Part shown: one piece after another, positions 12,539 through 39,527 of the stretch
How positions within the stretch are numbered: the stretch's first letter is position 1
How the letters are laid out: each line of letters begins with the position of its first letter
Source of the DNA: Spirochaetia bacterium
Lineage (GTDB): Bacteria > Spirochaetota > Spirochaetia > DSM-2461
Assembly: GCA_963668315.1 (NCBI GenBank)
Contig: OY764216.1
Location: forward strand, 4,288,001-4,352,000
DNA length: 64,000 bases
Direction of reading: 5' to 3'
Notes under the pieces: model-generated
Databases searched by the model: none
What the model saw: the letters and a program-made list of their open reading frames with translations, nothing else
Told to the model about the DNA's origin: nothing
Translations under genes and position numbers: made by a program

Positions 12539-12688
12539 TCAAAAAAGTGGGATAGGATTATTTCATCCTGGGAAAGAAGCGTTTTAAGTCAAAAGGGATT
12601 TTGCAATCAAAATAATCTGCCCTTATCCACTTTTCATTATTGGAGGCGAAAGCTTGATAAAGAAGCCTATAGAAAACATCTTCTATGA
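12539..12688 (+). pseudogene. IS66 TnpA (OrfA)-like remnant
   Basis: WDRIISSWERSVLSQKGFCNQNNLPLSTFHYWRRKL fits the IS66 accessory HTH pattern; no start codon and no tnpB/tnpC. Confidence 0.6.
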
Positions 12689-13882
12689 TTGTAAAATGGT
12701 TTCAGCAAACCGTTTAATGTCTTTCTTTGCGTTGAGAGCCCAACTATCAGCACGCGAAATAAAATTCATAAAACATTCTACATTAATTTTAAAACTTTCA
12801 TTATCATTTTTCTCAGTTTCCTCGCATACGAACATTGCAGAAGGGATCCCTAAATTTAAACAAGAATCGGTTATATTTCTTGCAACTCGACAAGGAGGCT
12901 GAAGTACTATCATCAAACTATCATTATTAAGAGTATACATTGCCGGACGTAAATGACTACCTTCTACTCCGATGACTATTGATGCTCCTATCAGTTGATA
13001 AATGAGGTTCCCTGTTACAACAGAATTAATATCCACACAAGAAAAACCTTCTTTAGATAATTGATGAATCAAATCTTCTTCATTTTGGAGAGTTCTTCGT
13101 TGTCCATCGTTACCACGTTTTATATATATTTTGTTTTTTTTAACATTATTTTTTTGATATAATAATTTTCGAATTTCATTATGTTCCTTTATACATGCAA
13201 TACTTGTATTTTGACCATCACACATAATCAAATGATTACATAAAAAAGATTCTGATTCATCAATATGTGGTAGATCAACTAGATTTCTCCAACTATCCTC
13301 ATCCCTATACTTTTCCCTTGGTAAATATCCAATGAATGGCCCTCGATTTCTTAGAAGTAGCTGCAAAGGATATTCTTGAGAAAGCCAATGTCCCCAATAC
13401 CTAGATGAATAATATGTGTTAGCCATAATGGCAAGATTATATTTTTTTATTTTACCAGGAATAGAAAGAGGAAGTTTATCTTTCCAATTAAAACTATAAC
13501 TAATTTTTCCAGTAAACATCCACGATTTATTAATAAATACATTTCGAAAATGAAGGACTTTACACTCAGGAAAAACACGGAGTTCCTCACGAAATGATTC
13601 TAAAATTGAGTTAAAAGAACGATCACCCCACTCATCACTAACATTATCTGGAATATTTCTTAAATTCTCTTCTTCCATATATGGATGAAGAGCGGGAATA
13701 GAAACTGAGCTTGAGATTACTTCAACCTTGTCAGCATTATATTCAAGTTTAGATTTATTTTTATTTGAAACAACCTTACCAAACACAAAAATACTATAGT
13801 ATTTCACCATGGTAATAATACTCGATATTTTCATTATGCACTCCATATAACAAATATCAATTAGCTTACACGAGTTGTTCAA
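12683..13882 (-). CDS. Glycosyltransferase family 61 (DUF563)-like protein
   Basis: YWGHWL..., KIYIKRG...RRTLQNEEDL, ASIVIGVEGSHL. Confidence 0.7.
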   Translation of the reverse strand: MNNSCKLIDICYMECIMKISSIITMVKYYSIFVFGKVVSNKNKSKLEYNADKVEVISSSVSIPALHPYMEEENLRNIPDNVSDEWGDRSFNSILESFREELRVFPECKVLHFRNVFINKSWMFTGKISYSFNWKDKLPLSIPGKIKKYNLAIMANTYYSSRYWGHWLSQEYPLQLLLRNRGPFIGYLPREKYRDEDSWRNLVDLPHIDESESFLCNHLIMCDGQNTSIACIKEHNEIRKLLYQKNNVKKNKIYIKRGNDGQRRTLQNEEDLIHQLSKEGFSCVDINSVVTGNLIYQLIGASIVIGVEGSHLRPAMYTLNNDSLMIVLQPPCRVARNITDSCLNLGIPSAMFVCEETEKNDNESFKINVECFMNFISRADSWALNAKKDIKRFAETILQS

Positions 13883-14400
13883 TCATTTTTTATAATTCTA
13901 GCAGGCATACCAATAGCCGTACAATTACAAGGGATATCAGAAAGAACAACCGCATTGGCTCCAATTTTCACATTATTCCCGATGTTAAGGAAATCCTGAT
14001 CGCACGCTTTATCTGTTACATCTCGATCTATATGTTTACTAATAATTTTTGCACCAGCTCCTATATCAACATGAGAACCAATTCTTACACACCCACCTAC
14101 AGTTACCTGTTGCAATATTAAACAGTTTGTACCAATTTCGGCTAAAGAATATATAACTATTCCATTGGGATGAGGAATGAGTAACCCCCCCCCGATCTTA
14201 CACTGAAGAGGAATATCTGCTCCAGATACAACAGACCAAAATCGATACCTTAAAACACATATTTTTTTAATGAAAAAAAACAAAGGATTTTTACTATTGA
14301 GTTTCTGATAATCACGAATTGATTTCAGTAATCTTTGCCCGGGATCCCAAAATCGCTTCGGTTTTTCGCGATCCCAATCAGGTTTCTCATCCATTACCAT
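13879..14400 (-). CDS. Serine O-acetyltransferase-like hexapeptide-repeat acetyltransferase
   Basis: IGGGLLIPHPNGIVI, QQVTVG, IGAGAKI, IGANAVV, GMPARI. Confidence 0.85.
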   Translation of the reverse strand: MVMDEKPDWDREKPKRFWDPGQRLLKSIRDYQKLNSKNPLFFFIKKICVLRYRFWSVVSGADIPLQCKIGGGLLIPHPNGIVIYSLAEIGTNCLILQQVTVGGCVRIGSHVDIGAGAKIISKHIDRDVTDKACDQDFLNIGNNVKIGANAVVLSDIPCNCTAIGMPARIIKND

Positions 14401-14515
14401 TTATACAACTCCAATATATAAGCCATAAGTGACCAAGTTTTAATTACAAATTAATCCATAGCGAGAGTATCGATAGATTCATATCGTTTTCATACATTCT
14501 TGATTTTTTTGAAAA

Positions 14516-16456
14516 TCAGAGAGATACCCCATATGTTTTCCCCCACCAAAGAAGGACGTAAATAGACCAGACACGGGACCAATATAAACCGGGCATATCA
14601 TTCTGAAAGGCAAGCCATATATTATAAATTTGTTTCTGATCCAGTCCCATAGAAGCGCATAATGCTTTATCCTGAAATAATGAATCTATCTCCCCTCTAA
14701 GGTTTTTATGGCACCAGTTACCAATAGGAAATTCGAAACCTTTCTTCTGTCTGTTAAAGAAGTTTTCTTCCACTCCTTCCAAGGCAATCTTCTTCAAAAG
14801 CCGTTTTCTGCGGATAGGAAGGTAACGAGCCATTGGCTCATATCTCGCCATAATTTCGATAAGTTCATGGTCAATCAGTGGTACCCTTACTTCCAGAGCA
14901 GAAGCCATACTTGTCATATCCGTATCGATAATCAATCGCTCGCCCACAAAATTCAATAGCTCCAACTGACTTATTCCATGTAATGTATGTCTGGTTGAGA
15001 CAAGCTCATCCATCAACTTATAGTATGAAGAACTCCAACCGAATTTAACACTAGAAACTCTGTTTTCCGGTAATAATAACTTATCAATAAAATCCTGCCG
15101 GAATAGGCCATAAGTTATTTGGTACAATTTCAGGAGATCACCCTGCGCAGCGAGAATATCCCCGACTTTGGCCCAACGGGCTTGATGGGGAATATAAACA
15201 GGTCTCCCATACTTGATTTGTCCAAGAATTTTCCCTAGAGGTTTTACAAAAGACTGGGGACAGTATCGAAATAACTGACTAGCCTTTTTAATCATGGGAA
15301 TAGTTTTAAAACTTTCATATCCGCCGAAGAGTTCATCCCCCCCCATCCCGGAAAGAGCCACGGTTATCCCCGCATCCTTGATGGCCTTGCTTAGATAATA
15401 GGTGTTAAGACCATCAAAAGTAGGAGTATCCAGACTATGCAGAGCATCGGGCAGTCCCCCAATAAAATCACTCTCCGATAATAAGATTTCATGATGCTCG
15501 GTATTATAGATCTGTGATATTCTCCGAGCATAATAGGATTCGTCAAATCCGTCTTCTGAAAATGAGATATTAAAAGTCTTTAATTTATTGGAAAATTGTG
15601 ACGCGATGGCGACAATTGCACTGGAGTCAACACCTCCAGATAGAAAAACCCCTAGTGGCACATCGCTGATCATTCTGAGGCGCACCGAATCAATTAATGT
15701 TTCTTTCAATAGATTCAGATCTTTGAGAGTATCAGTCCTCTTGGTGGGAAGCTCAGGTATTTGCCAGTATCTCTGTTCCTTAATCTGAAAGTTATCTAAA
15801 GAAATAACTAGATATGAAGATGAATTCAGCTTCTTGATATCTTTGATAATTGTATCTGTTCCGGCGACATACCCATTCCACAGATAAGTTTCAAGACTGA
15901 CAGGATTCAATTTCCTCTCTATCATTGAGGATTCCAGAAGGGCTCTAATTTCTGAAGCAAATAGAAAAACAGGTTTTCCTCTATAGTTCTGTATAGAATA
16001 ATAAAGCGGCTTAATCCCCATTCTGTCCCGGACGACCAAAACAATATTCTTCCTGGAATCATATAGAGAAAAAGCGAACATCCCCCTTAAATACTGTAAA
16101 CACTCTACTCCCCACTCAATATAGGATTTTAACAGAACCTCTGTGTCAGATTTGGTTCTAAAAAGATGACCTGCTTTCTCAAGCTGACTTTTCAGTTCCA
16201 GATAGTTATATATTTCCCCGTTGAAAACAAGTGAAAGCCCTCTGTCCTTATCAAGAAAAGGTTGATTACCATCATTAGACAAATCTATAATGGATAATCT
16301 TCTATGAGCTAATACAACTCCGCCAGGTGTATCCAGACGATCGGAATATATTCCCTCGGCATTAGGCCCGCGGTGAACAAGAGAATTATTAATTTTTTTC
16401 ACCGCATTCAGAATCGTTGTATCAACGGATCCAATAGCGCCTGCTATTCCACACAT
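14516..16456 (-). CDS. asnB: Asparagine synthase (glutamine-hydrolysing)-family amidotransferase, polysaccharide-associated
   Basis: N-terminal MCGIAG, HRGP, HRRLSIID, FNGEIYN, FLSGGVDSS, GMGGDELFGGY, LEVRVP. Confidence 0.9.
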   Translation of the reverse strand: MCGIAGAIGSVDTTILNAVKKINNSLVHRGPNAEGIYSDRLDTPGGVVLAHRRLSIIDLSNDGNQPFLDKDRGLSLVFNGEIYNYLELKSQLEKAGHLFRTKSDTEVLLKSYIEWGVECLQYLRGMFAFSLYDSRKNIVLVVRDRMGIKPLYYSIQNYRGKPVFLFASEIRALLESSMIERKLNPVSLETYLWNGYVAGTDTIIKDIKKLNSSSYLVISLDNFQIKEQRYWQIPELPTKRTDTLKDLNLLKETLIDSVRLRMISDVPLGVFLSGGVDSSAIVAIASQFSNKLKTFNISFSEDGFDESYYARRISQIYNTEHHEILLSESDFIGGLPDALHSLDTPTFDGLNTYYLSKAIKDAGITVALSGMGGDELFGGYESFKTIPMIKKASQLFRYCPQSFVKPLGKILGQIKYGRPVYIPHQARWAKVGDILAAQGDLLKLYQITYGLFRQDFIDKLLLPENRVSSVKFGWSSSYYKLMDELVSTRHTLHGISQLELLNFVGERLIIDTDMTSMASALEVRVPLIDHELIEIMARYEPMARYLPIRRKRLLKKIALEGVEENFFNRQKKGFEFPIGNWCHKNLRGEIDSLFQDKALCASMGLDQKQIYNIWLAFQNDMPGLYWSRVWSIYVLLWWGKTYGVSL

Positions 16457-16485
16457 ATTCTGCTATGTTTATCCTTATACTATGG

Positions 16486-17682
16486 CTATGGGAGAATATT
16501 CTCAATAAGATCTAAAAGTTTACGGGATTCAATTAAAGGGTTATGCTGTTCTTTGACACGAGCGTAACCAACATCTCCCATTTTTCTTAGCTCATCATGG
16601 GATTTTCCTAAGATTTCTTTTATACCCTTTTTTATATATTCGACAGAACCGGCGGGAATAAGGATTCCACAAGCGGAATCTACTAACTCCGGTATCCCTG
16701 CGACATAGGTACTGACGACAGGACGATGCAGTGCCAGTGCTTCCATGATAACAACAGGCAGTCCTTCGGCAAAACTCGGAAGAACAAGAGCCCGGCTGGA
16801 CTGCAACTCATCCTTAACCTGCTCACTGCTTAACCATCCCGTAATTTTAACATTATCCCTTAATCCCATGGAATCTATATAAGACTCTATAATATCCCTT
16901 AAATCTCCATCACCAGCCAGAATCAATCGGACATCTACCCCTTCTTCTTTTAGCTGCTTTACCGCTTCCATTATAAGAACCTGTCCTTTCTGGGGAGCCA
17001 GACGGCCGACACATACTAATTTATTATCTTCGAAGGGCAGATCTTCCTGCTGAAGATAGGTCCCTTCCACGGCACAATGAATAATATGAATCTTGTTCCA
17101 TTGATCCGGGTGACACCAGCGCATCAATTGACTTCGACCATAGGAACTGATGGCACATACAAAACGGGAATTATTGATTTTCTCTTCCATAGACAGATAA
17201 CGGGGACTGTCGAATTCCTCCGGTCCATGTACGGTAAAGCTGTATCCGGGACCACCAAGCAACTTGCCCAGCATAACCACGGTCGTCGTATTCGTACCAA
17301 AATGAGCATGTACATGGTCAATACCTTTATTGTTACAGATCTCTTTAAAAACGCAGGCTTCAACGAAATAAAGGATATGTTTTATAACTCCCCGTTCATT
17401 CAACCTTCCCAATTTAAGGGAGTGGGCAAAGACTCTGATGAAACGAAAGGGATTAGTAAAAAAAACTTTGATGAAAGCCCAAAGAATTTTAACAATACTA
17501 AAGTCCAGAATACAGATAGTCTGCTCCTGCTCTCTTTTATCCTTTTCATCTACTATATCATCTATTTTTCTGATAGTGACGCGGGTAATATTAACACCGT
17601 GACTTTCCAATCCCAGAATTTCTCTTCGTATAAAGCTATGACTCACCTTAGGATACTGATTGATAAGATAAGCGATTTTCAT
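16486..17682 (-). CDS. GT4 glycosyltransferase (WcaL-like)
   Basis: YPKVSHSFIRRE, HVHAHFG, VGRLAPQKG, EGLPVVIMEA. Confidence 0.9.
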   Translation of the reverse strand: MKIAYLINQYPKVSHSFIRREILGLESHGVNITRVTIRKIDDIVDEKDKREQEQTICILDFSIVKILWAFIKVFFTNPFRFIRVFAHSLKLGRLNERGVIKHILYFVEACVFKEICNNKGIDHVHAHFGTNTTTVVMLGKLLGGPGYSFTVHGPEEFDSPRYLSMEEKINNSRFVCAISSYGRSQLMRWCHPDQWNKIHIIHCAVEGTYLQQEDLPFEDNKLVCVGRLAPQKGQVLIMEAVKQLKEEGVDVRLILAGDGDLRDIIESYIDSMGLRDNVKITGWLSSEQVKDELQSSRALVLPSFAEGLPVVIMEALALHRPVVSTYVAGIPELVDSACGILIPAGSVEYIKKGIKEILGKSHDELRKMGDVGYARVKEQHNPLIESRKLLDLIENILP

Positions 17683-17759
17683 TTACTCTGTCCTTGATTC
17701 CTTGTAGCTTGAAGTTATTATCCAACAATTTACCACATTCTTCATATAAAAAACATTTT

Positions 17760-18983
17760 TTACAGATACTTTTTTATTAGTTCACTTCGGTTCTTGAATA
17801 CGATTGTATCACTATAAAGACTTCCCGATTGAGCAGCCTCCTGAACGAGTTTTATTCTTAATTCTCTATCCCTGGCAATATTAATAATGCAATCGGTTAA
17901 TTCTTCAACATTATTCTTTTCAACAAATAATCCCCCGCCAAATTGGGAAACGAGGTCAACGGGATAGGGAGTCCGGTATCCGACAATAGGGCAACCGGAA
18001 ATCAACGCCTCTATAAGACATCGGGGTGATTCCTGAGTTTTATGACAGAAGACAAAAAGATCACTCTCCTTCATCATATTCAGCAGTTCCTCTCGATTAG
18101 ATACCATCCCGATAAACTTTATAGTATTATCCATTCCTTGCTTCCGGATTTTCTCTGTGATCTGATCTTTCAGATCTCCCACTCCGGCCCATCTGGCTTC
18201 AAAAGGAATTCCTGCGCTTATAAGATTTTTCATTACCTCAACCCAATCTTCAGGTCCTTTCATAGGAACAACCCGCCCGACATAAAGTATTTTCAAAGGC
18301 CTTCCCGAATTAATCCCATCAACTTTTTGCTCCACTTCCTCTTTCGTAATATGGTATTTGGATGAAAGATGAATATCATGAACACAAAAAGAAGTCTTAA
18401 GCAAAGAGGAATAGGTATTGTAACAGTCATTTCCATGAAAAAGGCCCAGTGAAGCCTTTTTAATAGCCTTGTTATTCAAGGCCTGTGAAACCTTGGCTAA
18501 CAGAAAATAGTAAATTTTCTTTATCCCTTTTTTATTTTGCGCATCAAGAAGAATTATATCATGCTCCACCCTGTCCGTCCAAACGGAATATACCCTCTTC
18601 TTGCGGAATGCACGAAGACAGGCAAAACTCCCCCAATCTCCCCAGAATCCGCCTATGGCAAAACTAAGATATTGATGTGTACCGATAAGAGAATCTATTA
18701 ATTTCACAGTTTTTCTATAATTACGCATAAAAGATAAAGGAGTATAAGAATAGGGAAGCGGGAAAACGTCTAATCTGCTTCGTCGTTCAATAAGTTCGAC
18801 AGACTTATACCCCTCCTTACTATGCAGCCTAGGATTAAGAACTGCGGCTAAAGTAACTGATTCAAAGTTCTCCAGCCATAGTCGAAGACCGTTGCAAGCC
18901 TGCTCATCCAGCCAAATAGTCTTGTCCCATTCTTGTAAAAAAACAGGGAGGATTATTAATAAAGATTTCTCAATGGAACACAT
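17760..18983 (-). CDS. GT4-like glycosyltransferase
   Basis: LYVGRVVPMKG and ESPRCLIEALISGCPIV (E-x7-E motif). Confidence 0.8.
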   Translation of the reverse strand: MCSIEKSLLIILPVFLQEWDKTIWLDEQACNGLRLWLENFESVTLAAVLNPRLHSKEGYKSVELIERRSRLDVFPLPYSYTPLSFMRNYRKTVKLIDSLIGTHQYLSFAIGGFWGDWGSFACLRAFRKKRVYSVWTDRVEHDIILLDAQNKKGIKKIYYFLLAKVSQALNNKAIKKASLGLFHGNDCYNTYSSLLKTSFCVHDIHLSSKYHITKEEVEQKVDGINSGRPLKILYVGRVVPMKGPEDWVEVMKNLISAGIPFEARWAGVGDLKDQITEKIRKQGMDNTIKFIGMVSNREELLNMMKESDLFVFCHKTQESPRCLIEALISGCPIVGYRTPYPVDLVSQFGGGLFVEKNNVEELTDCIINIARDRELRIKLVQEAAQSGSLYSDTIVFKNRSELIKKYL

Positions 18984-19004
18984 AAAAATATATCTCTCCT
19001 GTCT

Positions 19005-20354
19005 CTAAAAATAACTTACCCCTGGCATACCCAGATGTAAAGCCATACGTATTAACAGTACTAACACAATGGCCATAATGAGTAAAATGGTAATAATCAG
19101 GTCATCCAGTAAATGGGCAATATTCTCCCGTAAAAACCCCCAATTCATGACAATATAAGTTGGAATATCATTAAGGGATATGACTATGATAACTCCCAAT
19201 AAGCCAAAGAAATGATAAACCAAAGGAGTCAGAATAATCATATAAAGAAACTTAACAAAATTTCCTATAGATTCATACTGTGGTTTCCCAAATACATACA
19301 GAGAATTACTATTAGACACATAGAGAACATAGGGCCACATCCCAATTGCCAGGATAGGAAGCATCCAGGCAGCGGCATAATATCTATCATCATAGAGCAG
19401 AGTGATTACATAATCTCCAAAACATGTCAGAAGAATGGTTGGAATTGCCGTTAAAAGGAGCAGAATTCGTCTTGGTTTTACAACCATCTTCCGGTATTCA
19501 CCTCTAGGTAGATCACGGTAGCGACTAAATAGAGGGAATAAAACCATACTAGAGAGTCTTCCGACAATCTGCTTTATAAGTTCAGAGAACATAATGGCAA
19601 TATTGAAAAATCCTAAAGCTTTAAAAGTCAATAACTTCCCTAATAAGATTTTATCTATTTGACTAGCCACAAATGTTAATGCAGTTGAAAGAAAAATCCA
19701 TTTCCCAAAATGTAATATCTCACTAAAGTACTGTTTTTCGATTGTAAGTCTTGGTTTGATATCTCCTTTTAAAAGAAAATGACTGAAAAACAGTCGTAGA
19801 GATGAAGAAACCAATGAAATGATGACCAAAGACCATATGCTCCTATAGTAATAGGCAAAAAGTATACCAGCAAGAGCGCCAAAGATTTGAGCAGATAAAT
19901 CGATACAAGATAAAGCACCTTGTTTTAATTCCTTCCTGTACAATAATAATTTGACAGAGTTAAACCCTTGAAGAGATGCTATAGCACCTATAAAGATGAT
20001 AATCCCCTTTAATTGGGGCTCATGATAAAAATAAGCAACAGGAACTGAGATAATCAATGCAATCGCAGTTATTATTCCCCCCCTTACCACTTGTAGTGTC
20101 CAGACAGTATTAATAAACGGTTCCTTATCTGTCTCACCACTTTTTATAACCGAAGGGCCAAGACCGATATCTGAAAACAAATTAATTCCTTGAATAAATA
20201 CATTGGCGATAGAGACTATCCCAAAATATTCGGGAACAAGTAAACGGGTTAAAATTAAGTTATTAGCAAGACGAATTACCTGTCCCAAACCATAACCGAA
20301 CAAGGTAAAAAAAGAAGCTTCTAACGCCAGCCTTTTATGATTTTTACTTTCCAC
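19005..20354 (-). CDS. wzx: Wzx-type oligosaccharide flippase (paralog 1)
   Basis: LILTRLLVPEYFG, SDIGLG, FGKWIF, DKILLGK; about 12 TM segments. Confidence 0.85.
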   Translation of the reverse strand: MESKNHKRLALEASFFTLFGYGLGQVIRLANNLILTRLLVPEYFGIVSIANVFIQGINLFSDIGLGPSVIKSGETDKEPFINTVWTLQVVRGGIITAIALIISVPVAYFYHEPQLKGIIIFIGAIASLQGFNSVKLLLYRKELKQGALSCIDLSAQIFGALAGILFAYYYRSIWSLVIISLVSSSLRLFFSHFLLKGDIKPRLTIEKQYFSEILHFGKWIFLSTALTFVASQIDKILLGKLLTFKALGFFNIAIMFSELIKQIVGRLSSMVLFPLFSRYRDLPRGEYRKMVVKPRRILLLLTAIPTILLTCFGDYVITLLYDDRYYAAAWMLPILAIGMWPYVLYVSNSNSLYVFGKPQYESIGNFVKFLYMIILTPLVYHFFGLLGVIIVISLNDIPTYIVMNWGFLRENIAHLLDDLIITILLIMAIVLVLLIRMALHLGMPGVSYF

Positions 20355-20393
20355 TAAATTTCCTTTTATTATTTATTCTATTAATTGATGATT

Positions 20394-21713
20394 TTACACC
20401 GCTAAAAGATTTCTCTTATTATTAACTAAATACTCACAATAACTAACTAATGCGCCCGAGCATAATGTATAAATAACATTCATCATCGCATTCACAAGGC
20501 AATCATAAGCGAAAAGTATGATAATCAAACATAGAACAATACTTTCAAGACAAAAATGATTTTTCTTCATATTTCTTATGATTGTAAGAGGACCAGCAAG
20601 AATAAGAGTAAACTGACTCAACAACCCAAGTAAACCTTGGGAAGCATATGAAATAATCCATAAAGAATCGACAACCACAGCTCGGTTTGTTAATGGGTTG
20701 ACTCCATTTATCCCACGAGCCCATCGGCTCCAACCCCAAAATACTTGTCCTAAACCCATACTTTTTAATAAAACCTCTTCTGAATTCAGCCGGAACAATA
20801 GTGACTCGATTCGTTCTTCATCAAAAAAGCGTGACATCAAAATAGAAAGATCATTAACAGTAACTAAACTCTGAATTCTCAGAAGAAAATAAACGGGGAC
20901 TATAATTATTAGTAATACAAAGAATTTCTCTGTAGTCTTTCTTTTATATATAAACCAAGAAAATAGTCCCAATATACCTAAAAAGAGAGCTCCCTTTGAT
21001 TTGGACATTACTAGAGTTGTAAAACAGACAGCAAATACGATAAGAAGAGGTAAGTGAAACATTTTTCGAATGTTCTTATCTCTCCACATCCAAAAAGAAA
21101 CAACAGCTCCGGCCATTAACCAAAAAGACACCATTAATCCATGGGTCATAAAAACAATGGGCCTATATCCGCCATATCTGAAATGCTGTATCCAGCTATG
21201 TTGAAAAAAACCATATATTTTAAGATTCAGCTGAGGACTCATCCTTAATTCATACTGGCATAGAGGAACATATATCAACACCCCAGCCAAGATGTAGCGA
21301 ATTAGCAATTTCAAGTCCTCTTCTTTCCTGAAATATTTTCGTCCTGTAACGAAAGAGACTCCCCATGAAAAAAATAAGGCTAACCCGTTAACAAAACCTT
21401 CATAAGCTCCAAAGCCATTGATGACTGATGAGATAATGGGACTAATAAAACAATAAAGAATCAAAATTCTATCAAAGTTATTTTTTTTATATTTGACCCT
21501 CTTTTTCGATAATGCTTCCCCAATCAAAATTCCCAAAGCAATGGCGACTTCCTTGTTATAAGTAATAACAGGCAGATCTATTGAGAGTTTGGGCAAAAAA
21601 CAGATGCCCCCGATATAGGAGAGAAGTACGGCAACTCTTGCATCTTTCTTCTGAAACCAGTAAATAGTGAGAGGCACCCAAAAGATCAGCATAAATTTTG
21701 CAAAAATCATCAT
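20394..21713 (-). CDS. Wzy/O-antigen-ligase-like polymerase
   Basis: Polytopic membrane protein with RYGGYRP.VF..HGL, SKSKGA, SLLFR, FWGW, DSLWI. Confidence 0.7.
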   Translation of the reverse strand: MMIFAKFMLIFWVPLTIYWFQKKDARVAVLLSYIGGICFLPKLSIDLPVITYNKEVAIALGILIGEALSKKRVKYKKNNFDRILILYCFISPIISSVINGFGAYEGFVNGLALFFSWGVSFVTGRKYFRKEEDLKLLIRYILAGVLIYVPLCQYELRMSPQLNLKIYGFFQHSWIQHFRYGGYRPIVFMTHGLMVSFWLMAGAVVSFWMWRDKNIRKMFHLPLLIVFAVCFTTLVMSKSKGALFLGILGLFSWFIYKRKTTEKFFVLLIIIVPVYFLLRIQSLVTVNDLSILMSRFFDEERIESLLFRLNSEEVLLKSMGLGQVFWGWSRWARGINGVNPLTNRAVVVDSLWIISYASQGLLGLLSQFTLILAGPLTIIRNMKKNHFCLESIVLCLIIILFAYDCLVNAMMNVIYTLCSGALVSYCEYLVNNKRNLLAV

Positions 21714-21764
21714 ATCTTTCTTATGCCTCTTCCTATACCCGGTTCATTTTATTACTTAATACTA

Positions 21765-23114
21765 TCATAAAAACTGCGCCCCTGGCAGTCCCCAATGGAA
21801 CATAAGACGTACAAGTATAAAAAGTCCAATAATAATAGCCAGAAATACAGTAGAGATCAAATCGTCGAACAAGAGGGATATTCTTTCCTTTAAATATCCC
21901 CAGTTCAAAACAATATATGGTGGCAGATCATTAAGAGCGATGGCGATAATAACACCTATCAGCCCGAAATACCGATAAGCAAAAGGAAGGAGAATCACCA
22001 TATAGAGAAATTTAACAAGATTTCCATAAGCATGGTATTGGGCTTTTCCCAAAACATAAAGGGAATTGCTGTTGGAAATGTACAAGGCATAAGGCCACAT
22101 ACCCAAAGCCAAAACGGGGAGCATCCATGCGGCCGCTTTATATCTGTCGTCATAGAGAATAGTAATTAAAAAATCCCCGTAGCAGACCAGAAAAGCCGTA
22201 AGTATCCCAGTAAGAAGAAGAAGGATTCTCCGCGGTTTTTTGATCATTTCCCGGTAGTCCTTGCGTGACAGATGCTGGTATTTACTATAAAGAGGAAAAA
22301 GCACCATTCCGGAAAGCCTCTCTAAAACCTGTTTGATAAGTTCAGAAAACATAATGGCAATATTGAAGACCCCCAGGGTTTCAAAGGACAAAAGCTTTCC
22401 CAAAAGGATCTTGTCGGTTTGTCCAGCCACGAATGTCATGGAAGTGGCGAAAAAAATCCACTTTCCGAATTGCAATATTTCATTAATATATTTCTTTTCC
22501 AGAACGATACGAGGTTTTATATTTCCCTTAAGAATAAGATGACTACCCAAGAGTTCTAAAAGAGACCCGAAGAAAGCGGAAATAACAAGAGACCAGATCG
22601 TTCTAAAGTAATAAGCGATGGCGATTCCAATGACAGCAGTAATAATCTGAATAGCTAAATACATAAGAGACAGGATTCCCTGTTTTAACTCTTTATTATA
22701 CAGAGCCAGATTCGTGGAATTAAACCCTTCCAGAAGGGAAAAGGAACCTATGAAAATAATCATGCCAATAAGCTTTGGCTCATTGTAAAATTTAGCTACC
22801 GGAACAGCTATTAGGATAGAAATAACAGTAAGGATCACACCTCTTATGATTTGAATCGTCCAGACAGTATTGATAAATTCCTCATCATCGGTTTTATCGC
22901 TCCTTATAATAGAAGGACCTAACCCTATATCGGAAAAGAGATTTATCCCAACGATAAATACATTGGCGATAGAAACTATTCCAAAATACTCCGGAACAAG
23001 CAACCGGGTAAGAATCAGATTATTTACCAGTCTGATGACTTGAGAAGAACCGAACCCGAATAGTGTAAAGAAAGATGCCTCCAAAGCAATTCGTTTATTA
23101 GACTTTTGTTTCAT
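21765..23114 (-). CDS. wzx: Wzx-type oligosaccharide flippase (paralog 2)
   Basis: Same length (449 aa) and extensive identity with 19005..20354. Confidence 0.85.
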   Translation of the reverse strand: MKQKSNKRIALEASFFTLFGFGSSQVIRLVNNLILTRLLVPEYFGIVSIANVFIVGINLFSDIGLGPSIIRSDKTDDEEFINTVWTIQIIRGVILTVISILIAVPVAKFYNEPKLIGMIIFIGSFSLLEGFNSTNLALYNKELKQGILSLMYLAIQIITAVIGIAIAYYFRTIWSLVISAFFGSLLELLGSHLILKGNIKPRIVLEKKYINEILQFGKWIFFATSMTFVAGQTDKILLGKLLSFETLGVFNIAIMFSELIKQVLERLSGMVLFPLYSKYQHLSRKDYREMIKKPRRILLLLTGILTAFLVCYGDFLITILYDDRYKAAAWMLPVLALGMWPYALYISNSNSLYVLGKAQYHAYGNLVKFLYMVILLPFAYRYFGLIGVIIAIALNDLPPYIVLNWGYLKERISLLFDDLISTVFLAIIIGLFILVRLMFHWGLPGAQFL

Positions 23115-23132
23115 TTTTACCTAAGAAAAACC

Positions 23133-26100
23133 CTATCGGGCAACTTTCATCCTTCTTTGTTTTTGTTTTTCCACTCTCGAAAGGATATGAGAGCGCGGCT
23201 CACCGCCTCCTCCTGCCCGTAGATATCCGGCCAGACTCTCCACAGTGGTGTAACGGAACATCATGGCAACGGGAATTTCCTCTTTTGCCAATTTTCCCAG
23301 TTCCCGATGCATTTCCATAATCTGAAGAGAGGTTCCGCCCAAATCAAAAAAATTATCTCTGGGACCGATAGGTACATTCAGAATCCTCTCCCAAATTTGG
23401 GCAATTTGCTTTTCCATCTCTCCTTCAATCTTTTCTTTAACCAAGTTCTGACTCTTCATCATAGTCAAATCTCTGGGCAGTTTCTTTCTGTCAAGTTTTC
23501 CATTATCACTCAGTGGCAGCTCTTCCAGAGAAAAGATAAGGGAGGGAACCATATATTTAGGAGACGTCTTTAGAATATGGCTTTTTAAAACCTCAATATT
23601 TAGTTCTCCGTCTTCGGGCACAACATAAGCGATAAGCCGTTGATCAGTACCGAAATCACCGTCCACTATGACGGCCGACGTTTTTACCCCCGGATGGTTG
23701 TTCAGGGTCGATTCAATCTCTCCCAGTTCGATACGCTGTCCGTGCAGCTGAACCTGATTATCGCTTCTTCCGAAATAGAGAACATCTCCGTCCATCGTCC
23801 ACTGTGCCAGATCACCGGAAAGATACATCTTACGGTTGCTATCAAGAAAGTGATCGACAAAAACCTTTTCCGTTAAATCTCCCCTCTTATAGTATCCCCT
23901 GGCCAACCCGGAACCGGCCAGATAAAGATCTCCCAGAACCCCTGGAGGAAGGGGACGCAAACTCTTATCCAAAACATAAACCTGAGTATCGGATACGGGT
24001 TTTCCGATAGGGACGACGGAACATTCCTTCTCACAATTCCAGTAAGTTATGAAAATGGTCGCCTCCGTTGGTCCGTAAAGGTTATGGAGTCTGGCTTGGG
24101 GAAACTTCCTGTAAAAATCATTTACGACCCCTGCCGGCAGTGCTTCTCCGCAGCAAAGCACATCCCCTATCATGGGGCAGCTTTCGGGATTCGTCGTATT
24201 CAGAAAAACATTTAAGAGGGAAGGGACAAAATGAAGAATGGATATATTCTCCCTTTGAATTATATCGGTCAGATAGCTATTGTCCAGATGTCCCTCAGGC
24301 TCAGCGATAACCAGAGGAGCGCCCGTTGTCAGGGGAAGCCAGAACTCCATACCTGAAACATCAAAATTATAGGGTGTCTTTAATAGGGTTTTTCTTTCCG
24401 TTCCGAAGTGGAATGTCCTGTTCATCCACAGGATCCGGTCAGTCAGCCCTCCATGCTCCACCTCAACACCCTTGGGTTTCCCCGTTGAGCCGGACGTATA
24501 AAAAAGGTAGGCTCGTGTCGAGGAAGCCACAGCCCCATCCGGATTTCCGGGATCGTCCCCCTCTATAAGGCGGCTATCGTCCAGAGACAGGATATTGACT
24601 TCGGGGAAATCTGCCCTGAGAATCTCTTCATACGCTTTCATTGACAGAAGAAGAGATAGGCCGGTATCCTCTACAAGATATTTTTTGTATTCTCTGGGAT
24701 GGGTCGGTTCAATCGGCATATAGGATGCCCCCGTTTTGAGGATTCCCAGCATACCAACCACCATCTCTAAGGACCTTTCCAGGGAAAGCCCTATGACCGC
24801 TTCCGGCTGTGCGCCCAATCGGATCAATTCTTCGGCGAGTATATTTGCCCGGCGATTCAATTCTCCATAGGAGAGGGATTCACCCCTGAAGCGAAGAGCT
24901 GTTTTCATCGGTTGCTGACTCACTTGCTCTTCAAAATATTGATGTACTCCTTTGAACTCCACCGGCGGGTATGAAGTATTGTTCCAGTCATAACATACTT
25001 TCTGTCTCCACACCTCAGAAACCCACACCGTTTGGGAGAGGGGAAAATCGACACCCTGAACAATTTGTTCCATAATGGTTAAAAAGGAGGCAGGGAAAAG
25101 TTCTGCCCTCTCTTTTGTAAAAAGAGCCTCATTAAACTCCAGCTCCCAATGATATATATCGTCTCTTTCCCAGAAATAAAAAAACAAGTCCAGTTGAGAA
25201 CCATGACCGGGAATAGCAAGCGGTTCAACAGTCAGGCCGTCCAGAGTCAATTCCATGGGGTATTCATTTGTAAAGCCGACCTGAAAAAGGGGGTTGTACT
25301 TCCTGTCTAACTCCCCTTTCACCGCTTTGATAACCTGAAGATAGGGAACAAATTGGTTCCTGTGAACAAGAAGCATCTTTCTTCGAACCTGTTTTAGCAG
25401 ATCGATGAACGTCATATCTTCGGAAAAATCAATTACCAAAGGAAGGATATTCATAAAACACCCGAAAATATCCTCGAAGATTGGCTTACCCCGATTTGTG
25501 CGCGGTACACCTACGGCAATTCTATCCTGCCCGGAATATTTATGAAGCAACAGATAATACGCCGCAAGAAGAACGAGATAAGGAGACGTGCTTTCTTTTT
25601 CACAGTACCTGTGCAATGCAATGGAAAGGTCTGATGAAAATTCACCTGCAAGACGAGAGCCTGTTGTCCGGGAAAAAGAAGGTCTTTCGAAATCAGTTGT
25701 CAGAGTCAGGGGATCGGAAACAAGATTCATTCTTTGCCAAAAGTCGTTCATTTTCCCGTAATCGTCGGAACCGGAAAAGTCCTCCATACTCCTTACATAA
25801 CACTCATAGGAGACCGCCTCCCTCAGAGAAGGCTCCGCCCCCCGGATAAGACTATTATAGATAAGGCTAAATTCCTCTCCGAAAATATCCTTGGAACGAA
25901 GATCCACAATCAGGTGATGAAACACGAAAAGAAGACGTCTCTTGCTGCCGTCTTTATAGAGAATAAAACGGAAAAGCGGTCCCTTTTCTATATAAAAGGG
26001 AGTGCAGATATCCTCTTCCAACCCTTCGGCAGAATACTCTTTTTCAGTGAGTTCGAAATACAGGTCGTCGTATACGATCTGTTCCGGTCCTTCCGTCCCC

Positions 26101-26294
26101 ATAATGAACCTGGCACGGAGCATTTCATGTCTATTAACAAGCAAATCAAGGGTCTTTCGAACCGCATCGGTATTCAAAGAACCTTTAATCTCAAATAGAG
26201 AGGCCATATTGTATGCGGAACCCTCCGGTTCCTGTTGGTACTGAAGCCAAAACTGCTTCTGTACGGCAGAAAGGTTTAACCGTTTCTCATGCAT
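23133..26294 (-). CDS. Single-module NRPS (C-A-T), no thioesterase or reductase
   Basis: C domain HHLIVDL; A domain YTSGSTGKPKG, FDVS, NLYGPTE, SGDL, RIELGEIE, NGKLDRK; T domain FFDLGGTSL. The probable start ATG at 26294 overlaps the upstream stop (ORF track start is 26327). Confidence 0.92.
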   Translation of the reverse strand: MHEKRLNLSAVQKQFWLQYQQEPEGSAYNMASLFEIKGSLNTDAVRKTLDLLVNRHEMLRARFIMGTEGPEQIVYDDLYFELTEKEYSAEGLEEDICTPFYIEKGPLFRFILYKDGSKRRLLFVFHHLIVDLRSKDIFGEEFSLIYNSLIRGAEPSLREAVSYECYVRSMEDFSGSDDYGKMNDFWQRMNLVSDPLTLTTDFERPSFSRTTGSRLAGEFSSDLSIALHRYCEKESTSPYLVLLAAYYLLLHKYSGQDRIAVGVPRTNRGKPIFEDIFGCFMNILPLVIDFSEDMTFIDLLKQVRRKMLLVHRNQFVPYLQVIKAVKGELDRKYNPLFQVGFTNEYPMELTLDGLTVEPLAIPGHGSQLDLFFYFWERDDIYHWELEFNEALFTKERAELFPASFLTIMEQIVQGVDFPLSQTVWVSEVWRQKVCYDWNNTSYPPVEFKGVHQYFEEQVSQQPMKTALRFRGESLSYGELNRRANILAEELIRLGAQPEAVIGLSLERSLEMVVGMLGILKTGASYMPIEPTHPREYKKYLVEDTGLSLLLSMKAYEEILRADFPEVNILSLDDSRLIEGDDPGNPDGAVASSTRAYLFYTSGSTGKPKGVEVEHGGLTDRILWMNRTFHFGTERKTLLKTPYNFDVSGMEFWLPLTTGAPLVIAEPEGHLDNSYLTDIIQRENISILHFVPSLLNVFLNTTNPESCPMIGDVLCCGEALPAGVVNDFYRKFPQARLHNLYGPTEATIFITYWNCEKECSVVPIGKPVSDTQVYVLDKSLRPLPPGVLGDLYLAGSGLARGYYKRGDLTEKVFVDHFLDSNRKMYLSGDLAQWTMDGDVLYFGRSDNQVQLHGQRIELGEIESTLNNHPGVKTSAVIVDGDFGTDQRLIAYVVPEDGELNIEVLKSHILKTSPKYMVPSLIFSLEELPLSDNGKLDRKKLPRDLTMMKSQNLVKEKIEGEMEKQIAQIWERILNVPIGPRDNFFDLGGTSLQIMEMHRELGKLAKEEIPVAMMFRYTTVESLAGYLRAGGGGEPRSHILSRVEKQKQRRMKVAR

Positions 26295-27597
26295 TGGTAA
26301 ACTGCTCCACATCATAACGTCCGACAAAAATGGGAACCTTCCCTTCGGGAGAACCGGATTTTTCCAGAAGATTCGTCAGATATGTGCGGTCATCCCACCC
26401 CTGGCTATGGCATAATCCCAGAATACCCATGTTCTCTCTGCTGCCGACTTGCGCTCTTAACTTGATTTTAGGAATAAAGGCTTTAATCTCGTCATCGACC
26501 TGATAAAGATTCACTAATTTTTTGGGATCACCATGGAGCAGGACCGATTCGTCCAAAGACATGTAGAGATCAAAGAGAACGGAATATGGCTGGATACAGA
26601 CCAATCCGTAAGAGGTAAAAGGACTGATTTCCCGATCCGACGTGTCCAGTCCACCTATCAAATACTGCTGGAGCTGCTTCTTCCCTACCCGGGGCAGCTT
26701 GTAATACTCCTTGCCATCGATCACTTCACCGGCATAATCGCAGGTGAATTCATTCATAAGGTCTCCCGTCAGGATAATGACCTTTTCCCGGTCAATTCTT
26801 TCATCCCCATCAACCAGTGTTTTGATATTCCTGGCCAGAAGAATATTCAGGGCGGCGCAATGAACGTTAAAATCACGAAAATCCTGACAACTGTAGGGGG
26901 CTTCTCCCATGGCGTCCAGAATATCTTCCCGGGAAGCGGGGAAAGTTTTATGGGTTATTCCGATATGCCCGGCAATCTTTATTGATTTTTCCGAATCTTC
27001 CGATTTACCCAGATCTAGGGTACACGCGATGGGAGAATCAAGATAAGCCGCGGCTTTAGAGGCGATGATTGTACTATCCAGACCTCCTGAAAGGGCAATG
27101 AAAACCGTCCAACCTTCTTTTTCCTTCCGGCGGATAGACTGAAATACAAGGTTCAAACGATGGTTAAGTTCATCCTGAAAGTCCTTAACATCCTCCGTTA
27201 GGGCCCCCCAGTCAAAGGCATCCCTGTTCAATGTGCCCTGAGGTTCTACAACAGGAGCCAAAGACCGAAGCTTAGTTAAACCATGCGAAGAGAGTCGTAC
27301 TTTATAACCGGCAGGCAAGGAGCAGATCTTTGTATTCCAATGAAAAAGATCAGTAAATCTTCGCGAAAAATGGAATTTTCCCTCGCCGTCCCGACAGTAG
27401 AAAAGTTTATGGATACCCAAGGGATCCCTTACACCTTCATAAGTCCCTTCATCAATCCTCCTGAGACAGGCGAACTGTCCGTAGATTGTCCCCTCATCAT
27501 AATGATCCAATGAGTCCCTGAACAGATCTGCATCTCTGTCTATGATAAATGTATTATGACCCCACTTTTCTATAATAAAAGGAGTATTATCTTTCAC
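26287..27597 (-). CDS. Asparagine-synthase-related ATP pyrophosphatase lacking the N-terminal glutaminase Cys
   Basis: RDPLGIHKLFY, LSGGLDST (PP-loop), ILTGDLMNE; no N-terminal Cys; truncated Ntn domain. Confidence 0.75.
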   Translation of the reverse strand: MKDNTPFIIEKWGHNTFIIDRDADLFRDSLDHYDEGTIYGQFACLRRIDEGTYEGVRDPLGIHKLFYCRDGEGKFHFSRRFTDLFHWNTKICSLPAGYKVRLSSHGLTKLRSLAPVVEPQGTLNRDAFDWGALTEDVKDFQDELNHRLNLVFQSIRRKEKEGWTVFIALSGGLDSTIIASKAAAYLDSPIACTLDLGKSEDSEKSIKIAGHIGITHKTFPASREDILDAMGEAPYSCQDFRDFNVHCAALNILLARNIKTLVDGDERIDREKVIILTGDLMNEFTCDYAGEVIDGKEYYKLPRVGKKQLQQYLIGGLDTSDREISPFTSYGLVCIQPYSVLFDLYMSLDESVLLHGDPKKLVNLYQVDDEIKAFIPKIKLRAQVGSRENMGILGLCHSQGWDDRTYLTNLLEKSGSPEGKVPIFVGRYDVEQFTNA

Positions 27598-27722
27598 TTT
27601 TCTCTCCCATTCTTAAATCCGAAACAATAAGACACAACTTAATATACCGGAATATTCATAAAAAATCTAAATTATTTAGATGAATGAAATGAAAAACCGT
27701 TTTTCTCAGATATACTAAAGAT

Positions 27723-28580
27723 ATGAATACTAAAGTAATGATAATCCTGACGGCTGTTTTCCTATTTACCATTTCATGCGACAAAGGAGATAACATGTTT
27801 CTTTCCCGTTCCCGGCTTTCCGACGTTAACCCAGGAAAAGGATCTCCCCAGATAGTGACTCTAAGACAAAATATGAAGAAAAAATCCTTTCTTCTTCAAT
27901 TTCCGGCGGATTATCAGGCTGATAAAACTTATCCGCTAGTTATAGCCTTGCATGGCTGGACAGAAAAGGAAGATTACTATTTCAGGCCATTCGAAGAAGA
28001 GCAAAATGATAGGCAAGAATACCCATGTATTTACCTGGCGCCCAACAATACCACCTATGGATGGGGAGAAAAGGCAGCTTGGGCAAGAAAAATCGCCGCC
28101 GAGCTGACTGTCCAATATCCAATAGATGAGGAACGTATCTATATCATAGGATTTTCCATGGGAGGTTCCGGCTCATTTGACTTTGCCGAATCCCTCTATA
28201 AAGAACAGGGTCTGATGGCCGCAGCCATTCTGCGATGCGCCGGCATGAGCCGCCCCACCCTTAAAGAGCCGCTTTTCTTTCGTACAGCCCTGAGTTATAA
28301 TATAGGGGACCGGGATTCACTGGAAAATGTATTCGAAACCTTTCAGGAATCAATGACCTATTACAGCAAAAACACAAACACATCCATAGGGAATGAAGAA
28401 ATTACCTTTAGCTACAAAGAGAGGCAAATCATCAAAACCACCAAATCACTTACGGATAATGATTCGGGGTTAGAGAAGTATAGGTTTAGCCTCTATTCCC
28501 CCATGAGTCATGAGTATGGACCGGTTTTTCTGACCGATGAAGAGTATGGATGGCTTTTCAGTCAGTCCTTGGGAAAATAG
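27723..28580 (+). CDS. Lipoprotein alpha/beta-hydrolase (esterase-like)
   Basis: Lipobox-like FTISC; YPLVIALHG, IDEERIYIIGFSMGG, C-terminal His (MSHE). Confidence 0.8.
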   Translation: MNTKVMIILTAVFLFTISCDKGDNMFLSRSRLSDVNPGKGSPQIVTLRQNMKKKSFLLQFPADYQADKTYPLVIALHGWTEKEDYYFRPFEEEQNDRQEYPCIYLAPNNTTYGWGEKAAWARKIAAELTVQYPIDEERIYIIGFSMGGSGSFDFAESLYKEQGLMAAAILRCAGMSRPTLKEPLFFRTALSYNIGDRDSLENVFETFQESMTYYSKNTNTSIGNEEITFSYKERQIIKTTKSLTDNDSGLEKYRFSLYSPMSHEYGPVFLTDEEYGWLFSQSLGK

Positions 28581-28602
28581 AATTACCCTTTATAGTCAAT
28601 TC

Positions 28603-32571: not shown

Positions 32572-33906
32572 CTAAATAATACTAAAACCCATTCCCATTA
32601 TATGTTTTATTAGCAATATGGTTGCAAGAATTAAAACTAACAGGATTGTGCTTTTCATATCCTGAAGGATTAAGCCCTGCTTTTCTTTTTTTAAGCCAAT
32701 ATTGATTATTACATATAATGGGATATCATTTAGTGCTACGGCAATAATAGCACCAAAAACATTCCCAAAATAGTAGGCGATCGGCAATACGGTAACCATA
32801 TAGGCGAATTTAACTATGTTTCCAGCTGCCAGCCAGTGGGGCTTGCCGATAGTCAGTAAACTACGGTCTATGGACATCACTAATAAGCGAGGCCAGATTC
32901 CCAAAGCGAGAATAGGCAGCATCCAGGCGGCTTCAGAATAACGGTCATCATAAAGGAAAAGAATAATGGAATGAGCCGTAACAGAAAATAAAGCCAAAGC
33001 TACGGCAGAAATATAGAGAATCATCATTCGTGGTTTTTCTATCCTTGCCTTGATCTGCTCGTAAGGAATATTTGAGATTACAGGGAAAACCACTTTAGCG
33101 CTTATATATTCGACAACACTTTTAGGAAACTCGGAAAACATCAAAGCGATATTATAAACACCGAATAATCCGACCCCCAGAAATCGGCCCAGCAATATTC
33201 TATCGGCTTGGGAAGCCAAATAACTCATGGCCGTAGAAAACATTATCCATTTTCCAAAGGACAGAAGTTCCCTAGCCGCTTCTTTTTCAAGAAATAACCT
33301 ATTCTGGAATGTATTTATCCGATGACTCCAGGCTGTTAAAAGAACAGCATTTAGACAGTATGGAATAATTAAAGCCCAAATACTCCTTGTATAATAGGCA
33401 AAAATTATCATTATGGAAGTACCTATTAATTGAAAGAGAATCTCGGCGCTGACTTTTTTTCTCTGATTTAAATTTTTCTCTAATAAATCCAGAGATGTGG
33501 AATTCAAACCTTGAACAATGGAGAAAAGCCCGAATATGGGCAAGATTTTCATAAGAATGGGAACTTTATAAATAACCGATACAGGATAGGCTATAATAAT
33601 AGAGAGTAAACATAAACCAATACTTCTCAAGAATTGAATAGTCCATGCAGTATTAAGAAAATCCTGATCATTCGATCGTTTGCTTCTTATAATACTTGGT
33701 CCCATACCCAGATCTGAGAGTAAAAAAATCCCTCTCTGAAAAACAAGAGCAATAGCAATAATTCCAAAATATTCCGGAAAGAGCAGCCTTGTAAGTATAA
33801 CATTTGAAACAAGACGAATTAATTGACTGAATCCATATCCCAATATGACGAAGAAAGAAGCACTAATTATTTTTTTTTTCATTTTTACCTGTGAATAATC
33901 CATCAA
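32572..33906 (-). CDS. wzx: Wzx-type oligosaccharide flippase (paralog 3)
   Basis: SQLIRLVSNVILTRLLFPEYFG, FGKWI, QADRILLG, LYDDRY; more divergent from paralogs 1 and 2. Confidence 0.85.
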   Translation of the reverse strand: MMDYSQVKMKKKIISASFFVILGYGFSQLIRLVSNVILTRLLFPEYFGIIAIALVFQRGIFLLSDLGMGPSIIRSKRSNDQDFLNTAWTIQFLRSIGLCLLSIIIAYPVSVIYKVPILMKILPIFGLFSIVQGLNSTSLDLLEKNLNQRKKVSAEILFQLIGTSIMIIFAYYTRSIWALIIPYCLNAVLLTAWSHRINTFQNRLFLEKEAARELLSFGKWIMFSTAMSYLASQADRILLGRFLGVGLFGVYNIALMFSEFPKSVVEYISAKVVFPVISNIPYEQIKARIEKPRMMILYISAVALALFSVTAHSIILFLYDDRYSEAAWMLPILALGIWPRLLVMSIDRSLLTIGKPHWLAAGNIVKFAYMVTVLPIAYYFGNVFGAIIAVALNDIPLYVIINIGLKKEKQGLILQDMKSTILLVLILATILLIKHIMGMGFSII

Positions 33907-38323: not shown

Positions 38324-38344
38324 CTATTCACTCCCTCGTTCCAA

Positions 38345-39445: not shown

Positions 39446-39527
39446 ATCTACCTCCCGAAAAGAGATATGTTCCTGCTATTTATATATTAAATTCTAAGTC
39501 CAAGAGTAATAACGGGATATAAAAACA

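Follow-up and report, generated by a model that had tools for sequence, protein, structure and literature searches.

A conserved gene pair encoding a glutaminase-less AsnB-fold enzyme and a single nonribosomal peptide synthetase module in a spirochaete polysaccharide island

The DNA analysed here is a stretch of 64,000 nucleotides (the window) from a Spirochaetia bacterium (GenBank assembly GCA_963668315.1, contig OY764216.1, positions 4,288,001 to 4,352,000 of the forward strand). Two adjacent genes in it are the subject of this report. One encodes a short glutaminase-less enzyme with the predicted fold of asparagine synthetase B (AsnB), called AsnB-S, and the other encodes a single nonribosomal peptide synthetase (NRPS) module with condensation (C), adenylation (A) and thiolation (T) domains, called CAT. 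The pair is real and conserved. It lies inside a polysaccharide island of about 90 kb with 37-47% GC, in a genome with 51% GC. Its features are as follows.

26287..27597, minus strand: AsnB-S, glutaminase-less AsnB-fold enzyme, 436 aa, GTG start
23133..26294, minus strand: CAT, single C-A-T module of an NRPS, 1053 aa from the ATG at 26294, without a thioesterase (TE) domain, with a basic C-terminal tail
26287..26294, minus strand: overlap of the AsnB-S stop and the CAT start, ATGCATGA, 8 nt, likely translational coupling
24999..26285, minus strand: C domain of CAT, HHLIVDLRSK, family consensus HHxxxDL[RH]SK
23496..24935, minus strand: A domain of CAT, code DVMHLCLIFK, motifs A3, A7 and A10 intact, A8 QVQLHG
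23220..23408, minus strand: T domain of CAT, Ser989 in FFDLGGTSL

The ATG of CAT at 26294 overlaps the TGA of AsnB-S (26289..26287) as ATGCATGA. A GGAG lies about 11 nt upstream of this ATG, and 18 bp separate the CAT stop from the ATG of a wzx flippase gene. The overlap and the spacing are as given in a preliminary description of this DNA that was made from the sequence alone. There is no sign of an assembly artefact, since a contig from a public run, possibly of the same source, covers window 21000-29000 with zero differences. The GC content at third codon positions (GC3) is 0.46-0.48 in the pair and the adjacent hydrolase gene versus 0.31-0.40 in the flanking glycan genes. Such a difference inside a low-GC stretch suggests that the pair is a cassette within the island. 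A scan of promoters and terminators gave no signal above that of shuffled sequence.

AsnB-S contains the PP-loop SGGLDS (residues 170-175), DxRDFNVHC (239-247), TGDLMNE (277-283) and KxRAQVG (379-385), and it does not have the N-terminal cysteine (Cys1) of the glutaminase. The preliminary description had read SGGLDS, GDLMNE and the missing cysteine in the same way. In Foldseek, the structure model of AsnB-S (pLDDT 93.5) matched AsnB, beta-lactam synthetase and CarA with TM 0.54-0.63. The model aligned with E. coli AsnB over 362 residues (Z 25.5, rmsd 3.2) and with beta-lactam synthetase and CarA (1jgt, 1q15) at Z 24.0 and 23.2. Since the alignment starts at residue 57 of AsnB, the Cys1-bearing strands, that is, about the first 56 residues, are gone. 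The model indicates that AsnB-S is an AsnB-fold enzyme without a working glutaminase. The synthetase fold and SGGLDS are those of the glutamine-hydrolysing asparagine synthetase B; Cys1 and a complete N-terminal nucleophile (Ntn) glutaminase domain are absent, and AsnB-S is not a member of that class. Its TIGR01536 score was 52 bits against a cut-off of 267, it reached no NCBIfam cut-off, and no fitting curated model was found. The lasso cyclase model NF033535 gave no match and the neighbours are NRPS and glycan genes, so AsnB-S is not a lasso cyclase. AsnB-S is a single-copy gene without a paralog in the genome. For this reason, and because the identity is 24% over 115 aa, we rejected the idea that it is a clipped copy of a Cys1-type AsnB.

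Conservation of AsnB-S was computed over 120 homologs listed among 1086 matches; 62 others of these are 45-75% identical and 57 are about 29-39% identical. SGGxDS, D239-x-R-D-F-N-V-H, TGDxxNE, D287-Y288 and Y299 show no or almost no variation, and K379-x-R-A-Q-x-G is lost in fragments only. K379 is found in 118, H246 in all and C247 in 118 of the 120, and Cys at position 2 is absent from every one of them. By eye, K379 stands at the place of what we take to be the catalytic Lys, and Asn282 presumably stands where the Mg-binding Asp would be. A profile search with E up to 1e-30 gave 116 clusters at 50% identity, mostly of 400-450 aa. Judged from these sequences, AsnB-S is a conserved enzyme family of its own. 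As the preliminary description had supposed, it is plausible that AsnB-S uses a nitrogen nucleophile not derived from glutamine, because the glutaminase is not working and the active site is strictly conserved.

CAT matched the Pfam families Condensation, AMP-binding, AMP-binding_C and PP-binding, and no thioesterase was found in it. It has the C-A-T order and the T-domain Ser of an NRPS elongation module and does not have HHxxxDG. Thus, CAT is an NRPS module with a non-canonical C motif. By sequence, the best matches of its C domain among solved structures are elongation domains, namely those of tyrocidine synthetase 3, Txo1/2 and LgrA. In this respect CAT resembles a canonical LCL-type elongation module. 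It differs from such a module in HHxxxDL, A8 QVQLHG, an unassigned code, the basic tail, and partner genes that lie separately 40 kb away. The motif HHLIVDL, which the preliminary description had also noted, is at residues 126-132. Leu in place of Gly, with His and Asp retained, was found in 20 of 20 C domains of the family versus 2 of 96 other matches, and HHxxxDL is also present in stand-alone C proteins. Decay of the motif was rejected since Leu is fixed throughout the family.

The code DVMHLCLIFK, previously assigned by eye, was also obtained from motif anchors. The same anchors gave DVWHMSLIDK for a paralogous C-A-T protein in the same island and DILQLGMVWK for an A-T-TE protein, which we take to be serine-type and glycine-type codes, respectively. 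All eight members of the CAT clade, seven of them orthologs at 51-71% identity, have DVMH[LF]CLIFK. CAT is 45% identical to the Ser paralog in the C domain and 52% in the A domain. The CAT clade is sister to a spirochaete Ser-module clade that includes this paralog, with support of 95/97 in the C tree and 99 in the A tree, the latter being a quick version; outgroups are long-branched in the trees. As both trees give this position, the simplest account of CAT is that it arose by duplication of a Ser module and that its pocket was apparently re-specified by changes of W to M, S to C and D to F. The A8 motif is QVQLHG or QIQLHG, not QVKIRG, in 11 of 13 spirochaete C-A-T proteins (2 were unmatched by the pattern). 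The tail behind the T domain (window 23133-23210) may be a docking or membrane helix; most family members have K or R at 7-12 of their final 25 positions.

The nearest named homologs are from Spirochaetales, and one relative of the same class is a Spirochaetia genome. Six of the seven CAT orthologs have AsnB-S on a contig of equal size, the seventh being on a 4.5-kb contig; adjacency was read directly in genome G001, one further pair has the consecutive accessions MDC7223962/3, and for four the link is equal contig size. Thus, the two genes co-occur elsewhere, as the preliminary description would expect. In G001, AsnB-S and CAT are adjacent with a 22-bp gap instead of an overlap, a related hydrolase gene is upstream, and a WecG-type glycosyltransferase gene, not a flippase gene, is downstream. 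The polysaccharide context recurs. The flippase adjacency and the overlap are not conserved. AsnB-S also adjoins a Ser-type C-A-T gene independently in locus L069, and in L010 it adjoins a lone C domain. Of 201 class relatives, 4 have AsnB-S and 6 have a close homolog (at least 48% identity) of the Cys1-type AsnB described below, AsnB-L; all 4 are within these 6, which represent two genera only, so the carriers are not independent. AsnB-L matches at E up to 1e-110 were found in 15 of the 201. Genomes G202, G205 and G522 also have two C-A-T modules, one of altered code. In 301 genomes of the order of G202, AsnB-S was found in G202 alone. In G075, C-A-T is split into two open reading frames inside the C domain (L130:13979-17118), which is either a break or a sequencing error.

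The same island has a second block about 40 kb from the pair, across a cluster of insertion sequence (IS) elements.

C1:4260840-4274588 of this genome, G000 (L001:30-6588, L002:12840-20000): second block, from AT3 to GT2
C1:4261938-4273638: its core, that is, a protein with ketosynthase (KS), acyltransferase (AT), acyl carrier protein (ACP) and TE domains, an ACP, AsnB-L, a C-A(Ser)-T protein and an A(Gly)-T-TE protein
C1:4265772-4268028: the stand-alone ACP and adjacent AsnB-L

AT3 abuts the polyketide synthase (PKS) gene, and GT2 is also present. The preliminary description found no release domain. This is correct in cis; the second block, however, holds the only two TE domains of the genome and its only other C domain, about 40-47 kb away. 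Further NRPS and TE modules in the genome were to count against the earlier reading, and part of such a set is found here: the paralogous C-A-T, the ACP, the Cys1-type AsnB and two TE-bearing proteins. By gene content, the ACP, Ser-T, A-T-TE and PKS-TE are possible donor carriers or release partners for CAT. The island also has AT3, MBOAT/AlgX and hexapeptide genes for glycan acyltransferases. Carrier and activating enzymes are therefore found in one glycan locus with glycan acyltransferases, as carrier-protein-dependent glycan acylation would demand. In two places (L001:12665-15307 and L131:7155-9956) an A-T protein carries a fused membrane domain that matches AT3 weakly over the full length; Pfam E was 0.015 and 0.0085, and a local AT3 profile did not confirm the match. 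If real, this candidate fusion would be a direct hand-over of an acyl group from carrier to glycan.

A more distant sample of AsnB-S consisted of 77 metagenome loci, and in 57 of them the sequence goes on for 500 bp or more beyond the gene. Of the 57, 39 have AsnB-L next to AsnB-S; when the loci are clustered at 80%, the figure is 22 of 35. In 20 of 22 well-flanked distant loci, an ACP gene is found no further than 4 kb from AsnB-S; the ACP profile was seeded in part with these loci, and related genomes are not independent. A scan of 90 neighbours, selected from about 18 loci, showed that DegT, PseB/F/G/I-type, NeuB/C, GNAT, and hexapeptide or AAC(3) acyltransferase genes recur around the cassettes, often in loci for amino sugars or nonulosonates. 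The cassettes are located between sugar aminotransferases and N-acyltransferases. Every HHxxxDL block that was read lies among glycan genes. A separate AsnB-S clade (L125:9211-13466; L037; L088) has a ligase, a pyridoxal phosphate (PLP) enzyme, AsnB-S and ACP without a Cys1-type AsnB. A plasmid search gave a single distant match with the same four genes, from Kitasatospora. In the otherwise unrelated loci L004:11188-11826, L011 and L015:1345-2004, AsnB-S adjoins a phosphopantetheinyl transferase gene.

In 111 genomes of Marinilabiliaceae, AsnB-L was found in 9, a WbuX-like gene in 5 and AsnB-S in 2. Six of the nine AsnB-L genomes have the order AT3, AsnB-L, ACP, lone C, DegT, and no TE was found in the regions of the lone-C loci that were read. 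The gene beside or near the lone C domain varies between WbuX-like, AsnB-S and GNAT-like. The first 11 blocks suggested that every block needs AsnB-S or WbuX; this fails, since 3 of the 9 genomes have neither. Two of these three have a GNAT-like gene beside C (an Atlas lead only). A GNAT-like protein of 285 aa without a Pfam match is encoded between the lone C (HHIIIDLHSY) and DegT in L136:2313-3167 and L137:9992-10843, in the slot taken by AsnB-S in L010. Only 2 of the 9 genomes with a Cys1-type AsnB have AsnB-S. In G566, AsnB-L and ACP are 98% identical to those of G506, yet AsnB-S gave no match. A core without AsnB-S weakens the idea that AsnB-S is an essential loader of ACP. In these glycan loci, AsnB-S appears to be a tailoring step that is not always present and that goes together with carrier-protein chemistry.

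Several known systems resemble parts of this one. PdmN of the pradimicin pathway is reported to ligate D-Ala or D-Ser to a carboxylate (10.1101/2025.10.30.685158). AsnB-S shares with PdmN, beta-lactam synthetase and CarA the AsnB fold without Cys1 and a working glutaminase (Z 23-24 to 1jgt, 1q15), and by this analogy it may work like ligase-type AsnB. It differs from them in being shorter (about 436 aa), with 14-18% identity, and in its own DxRDFNVHC and GDLMNE and its ties to carrier proteins and glycan loci. WbuX/PseA-type N-acetyl sugar amidotransferases are likewise glutaminase-less PP-loop enzymes in glycan loci. They belong to another subfamily, however: AsnB-S keeps a remnant of the N-terminal beta domain and is much closer to AsnB (Z 25.5 to AsnB versus 5.7 to 8wex). 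The WbuX-like gene that flanks related C domains scores below the TIGR03573 cut-off.

In gladiolin biosynthesis, GbnC is described as amidating succinyl-GbnA (10.64898/2026.04.24.720606). As with GbnA/GbnB/GbnC and with MgsC/MgsD of glutarimides, the stand-alone ACP and Cys1-type AsnB of the second block precede an assembly line; the likeness is one of gene content. In the Gbn and Mgs systems, a dedicated AT charges the ACP and a PKS serves as acceptor, whereas here the acceptor would be an HHxxxDL C domain and an additional glutaminase-less AsnB is present. The only AT seen in the second block is the cis AT of the PKS, with no stand-alone one, and the lone-C loci that were read show none. Our literature search, outside of which lay most subscription journals and supplements, found nothing on the AsnB-S family or the cassette. 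The window adds a short AsnB family linked to carrier proteins and a module that was duplicated and apparently re-specified; in the line around them there is a likeness to amidated-starter systems.

On a balance that we regard as about even, the pair is an intact, optional add-on, consisting of an amide-forming AsnB-S and an extra elongation module, to a split line of carrier proteins, with a glycan as the likely target of acylation. The product would probably be a small, amide-bearing acyl decoration of the polysaccharide. The computed basis of this reading is gene content, conservation, fold, paralogy and co-occurrence, from which we infer five steps. First, if GbnA/GbnC and the glutarimide starters are a guide, the stand-alone ACP would carry a dicarboxylyl group, which the Cys1-type AsnB would amidate. 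The HHxxxDL C domains would then move the acyl group onto Ser-T and onto the residue selected by CAT. AsnB-S may adenylate a free carboxylate and then, like PdmN and beta-lactam synthetase, form an amide with an amine that is not ammonia released from glutamine by AsnB-S itself. The last two steps are the weakest: the Gly A-T-TE and KS-AT-ACP-TE proteins may extend or off-load the chain, and the AT3, MBOAT or hexapeptide acyltransferases of the island may pass it to the glycan. CAT likely adds one further amino acid, and the amide made by AsnB-S could be on a carrier-bound or a sugar-bound unit.

Several observations weigh against this reading. No amino-sugar aminotransferase gene was found in the island, DegT matches being 0.8 Mb away, and UDP-glucose dehydrogenase is encoded elsewhere in the genome, none nearer than 0.5 Mb. 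In VibH, the Gly of HHxxxDG is reported among the catalytically important residues (PMC1894796), so activity of the CAT C domain is not guaranteed. The usual Lys of A8 (residues 846-851, window about 23740-23760) is missing in both spirochaete clades. Six of eight named close AsnB-S loci have no NRPS gene within the retrieved flanks. In five of these six genomes (G201, which is G101, G075, G202, G203 and G205), the AsnB-L/ACP/C block is found in a glycan locus at another place; G204 showed no more than an AsnB-L-like gene and ACP, without an HHxxxDL C domain in the locus read. Furthermore, nucleophile and His motifs are kept in both TE domains (GVSIAG/PDDH and GECIGG/PGTH, the latter, with Cys in the nucleophile motif, in KS-AT-ACP-TE), and with such intact-looking motifs release of a free metabolite fits equally well. 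The same split line, with the pair in the same add-on role, would then make a small peptide-polyketide released by the TEs, and the island position would reflect co-transfer or co-regulation. Gly and Ser modules with a PKS extension are ordinary metabolite logic, and the island has no amino-sugar acceptor pathway. Nevertheless, we consider this unlikely, because the glycan surroundings of all HHxxxDL blocks read, the Marinilabiliaceae lone C before DegT without TE, and the distant cassettes between sugar aminotransferases and N-acyltransferases all point to glycans.

It is decidedly unlikely that AsnB-S acts as an additional amidotransferase which receives ammonia from the Cys1-type AsnB, or as a ligase that loads a dicarboxylic acid onto ACP. 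The frequent neighbourhood of the two enzymes in the distant loci would suit this idea, as would the glutaminase-less WbuX-like enzymes flanking the same C domains and the lack of an ACP-loading A domain or AT in the AsnB-S/AsnB-L/ACP cassettes examined. It conflicts with the G566 core, with the rarity of AsnB-S in Marinilabiliaceae, with the clade that has its own ligase and PLP enzyme, and with the distance of 48 kb between AsnB-S of the window and the close Cys1-type AsnB. In the model of the preliminary description, the two genes suffice by themselves: before the flippase acts, AsnB-S couples the T-bound amino acid, through its amine, to the carboxylate of a sugar (a uronate). The tight, repeated pairing with a dedicated A specificity, the second adjacency in L069, the UDP-glucose dehydrogenase and the coupling of amino acids and carboxylates by ligase-type homologs such as PdmN (10.1101/2025.10.30.685158) speak for it. 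We nevertheless find it improbable, since the conserved C domain would have no function in it and the product would stay tethered, most AsnB-S family members are without NRPS, the wzx adjacency is not conserved, and TE-bearing blocks are present (the paralogous block in G000, KS-AT-ACP-TE in G001). Since the C domain is conserved, it is a likelier consumer of the T-bound alpha-amine than AsnB-S is, and amino-sugar loci with N-acyltransferases suggest the opposite polarity, the sugar giving the amine and the cassette the acyl group. The other role once proposed, that AsnB-S is an unusual release enzyme for the TE-less CAT, is very hard to credit. The two are likely co-translated, and H246 and C247 are conserved near the active site; however, the adenylating fold of AsnB activates free carboxylates and is ill-suited to release of a thioester, the family mostly lacks NRPS partners, and TE domains are available in trans. 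Equally remote is the idea that the pair is what remains of a duplicated module now in decay. The non-canonical C and A8 motifs, the mobile IS-rich island and the patchy distribution would fit a relic, but the reading frames are full-length, the same variants are fixed across the orthologs, and the active-site residues of AsnB-S are invariant over the listed homologs.

A broader proposal may be put forward, one that we hold only tentatively and lean against. AsnB-S would be a cross-phylum family of carrier-protein-dependent amide ligases. Together with Cys1-type AsnB, ACP and a dedicated family of HHxxxDL C domains, it would make acyl groups of amide or peptide type for bacterial surface glycans. 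Where the loci are simplest, N-acylation of an amino sugar would be the work of the C domain, and duplicated, re-specified modules, as in the window, would diversify the coat. NRPS machinery would then be a serotype-generating form of glycan tailoring. To our knowledge, many bacterial glycans carry amino-acid or amide substituents without assigned enzymes. Through the pair, a conserved ligase family and a conserved family of HHxxxDL condensation domains are connected with glycan loci in Spirochaetota, Bacteroidota and other groups. It also offers testable enzymes: a new A-domain code, a truncated AsnB, and a C domain whose motif has no glycine. Among cultured bacteria, Teredinibacter turnerae T7901 has an AsnB-S homolog (ACR11160.1). 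Should the link to glycans fail, the pair would still belong to a new small NRPS/PKS line with an uncharacterised tailoring enzyme.

The other features of the window around the pair are as follows.

27723..28580, plus strand: divergent alpha/beta hydrolase, N-terminus lipoprotein-like, GC3 of 0.46 as in the pair
21765..23114, minus strand: Wzx flippase, context only, one of three wzx paralogs in the window
19005..20354 and 32572..33906: the further Wzx paralogs
12683..21713, minus strand: same-strand polysaccharide genes downstream of the pair
14516..16456, minus strand: Cys1-type AsnB within that stretch

The hydrolase gene is possibly a third gene of the cassette; its product is 42% identical to the pair-flanking relative in G001, which is about equal to its identity to another paralog. 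The downstream stretch encodes a Wzy-like membrane protein (no Pfam match), the second Wzx, two GT4 proteins, a hexapeptide acyltransferase and GT61. The IS-element cluster between the halves of the island is at window 3652-12020, and MBOAT/AlgX pairs are found elsewhere in the island. At window 36323-42428 there is a third carrier-protein system with AsnB (41% to the AsnB-L query), ATP-grasp, ACP, NadE-like and acyl-ligase genes. Its ligase-ACP cassette resembles that of Sinorhizobium meliloti, in which a ligase is reported to acylate a dedicated ACP (SMb20650/SMb20651; PMC7232532); the S. meliloti operon is without a C-A-T module and AsnB-S. A lasso-peptide-like cluster is found at L002:5499-12658 (G000 C1:4253499-4260658), with an AsnB-like cyclase that starts with Ser, a nucleotidyltransferase, an ABC transporter, a transglutaminase-like B2 and a PqqD-like B1. 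As for the gene order of the S. meliloti operon, we take it to be SMb20649-52 with flanking asnB and nadE.

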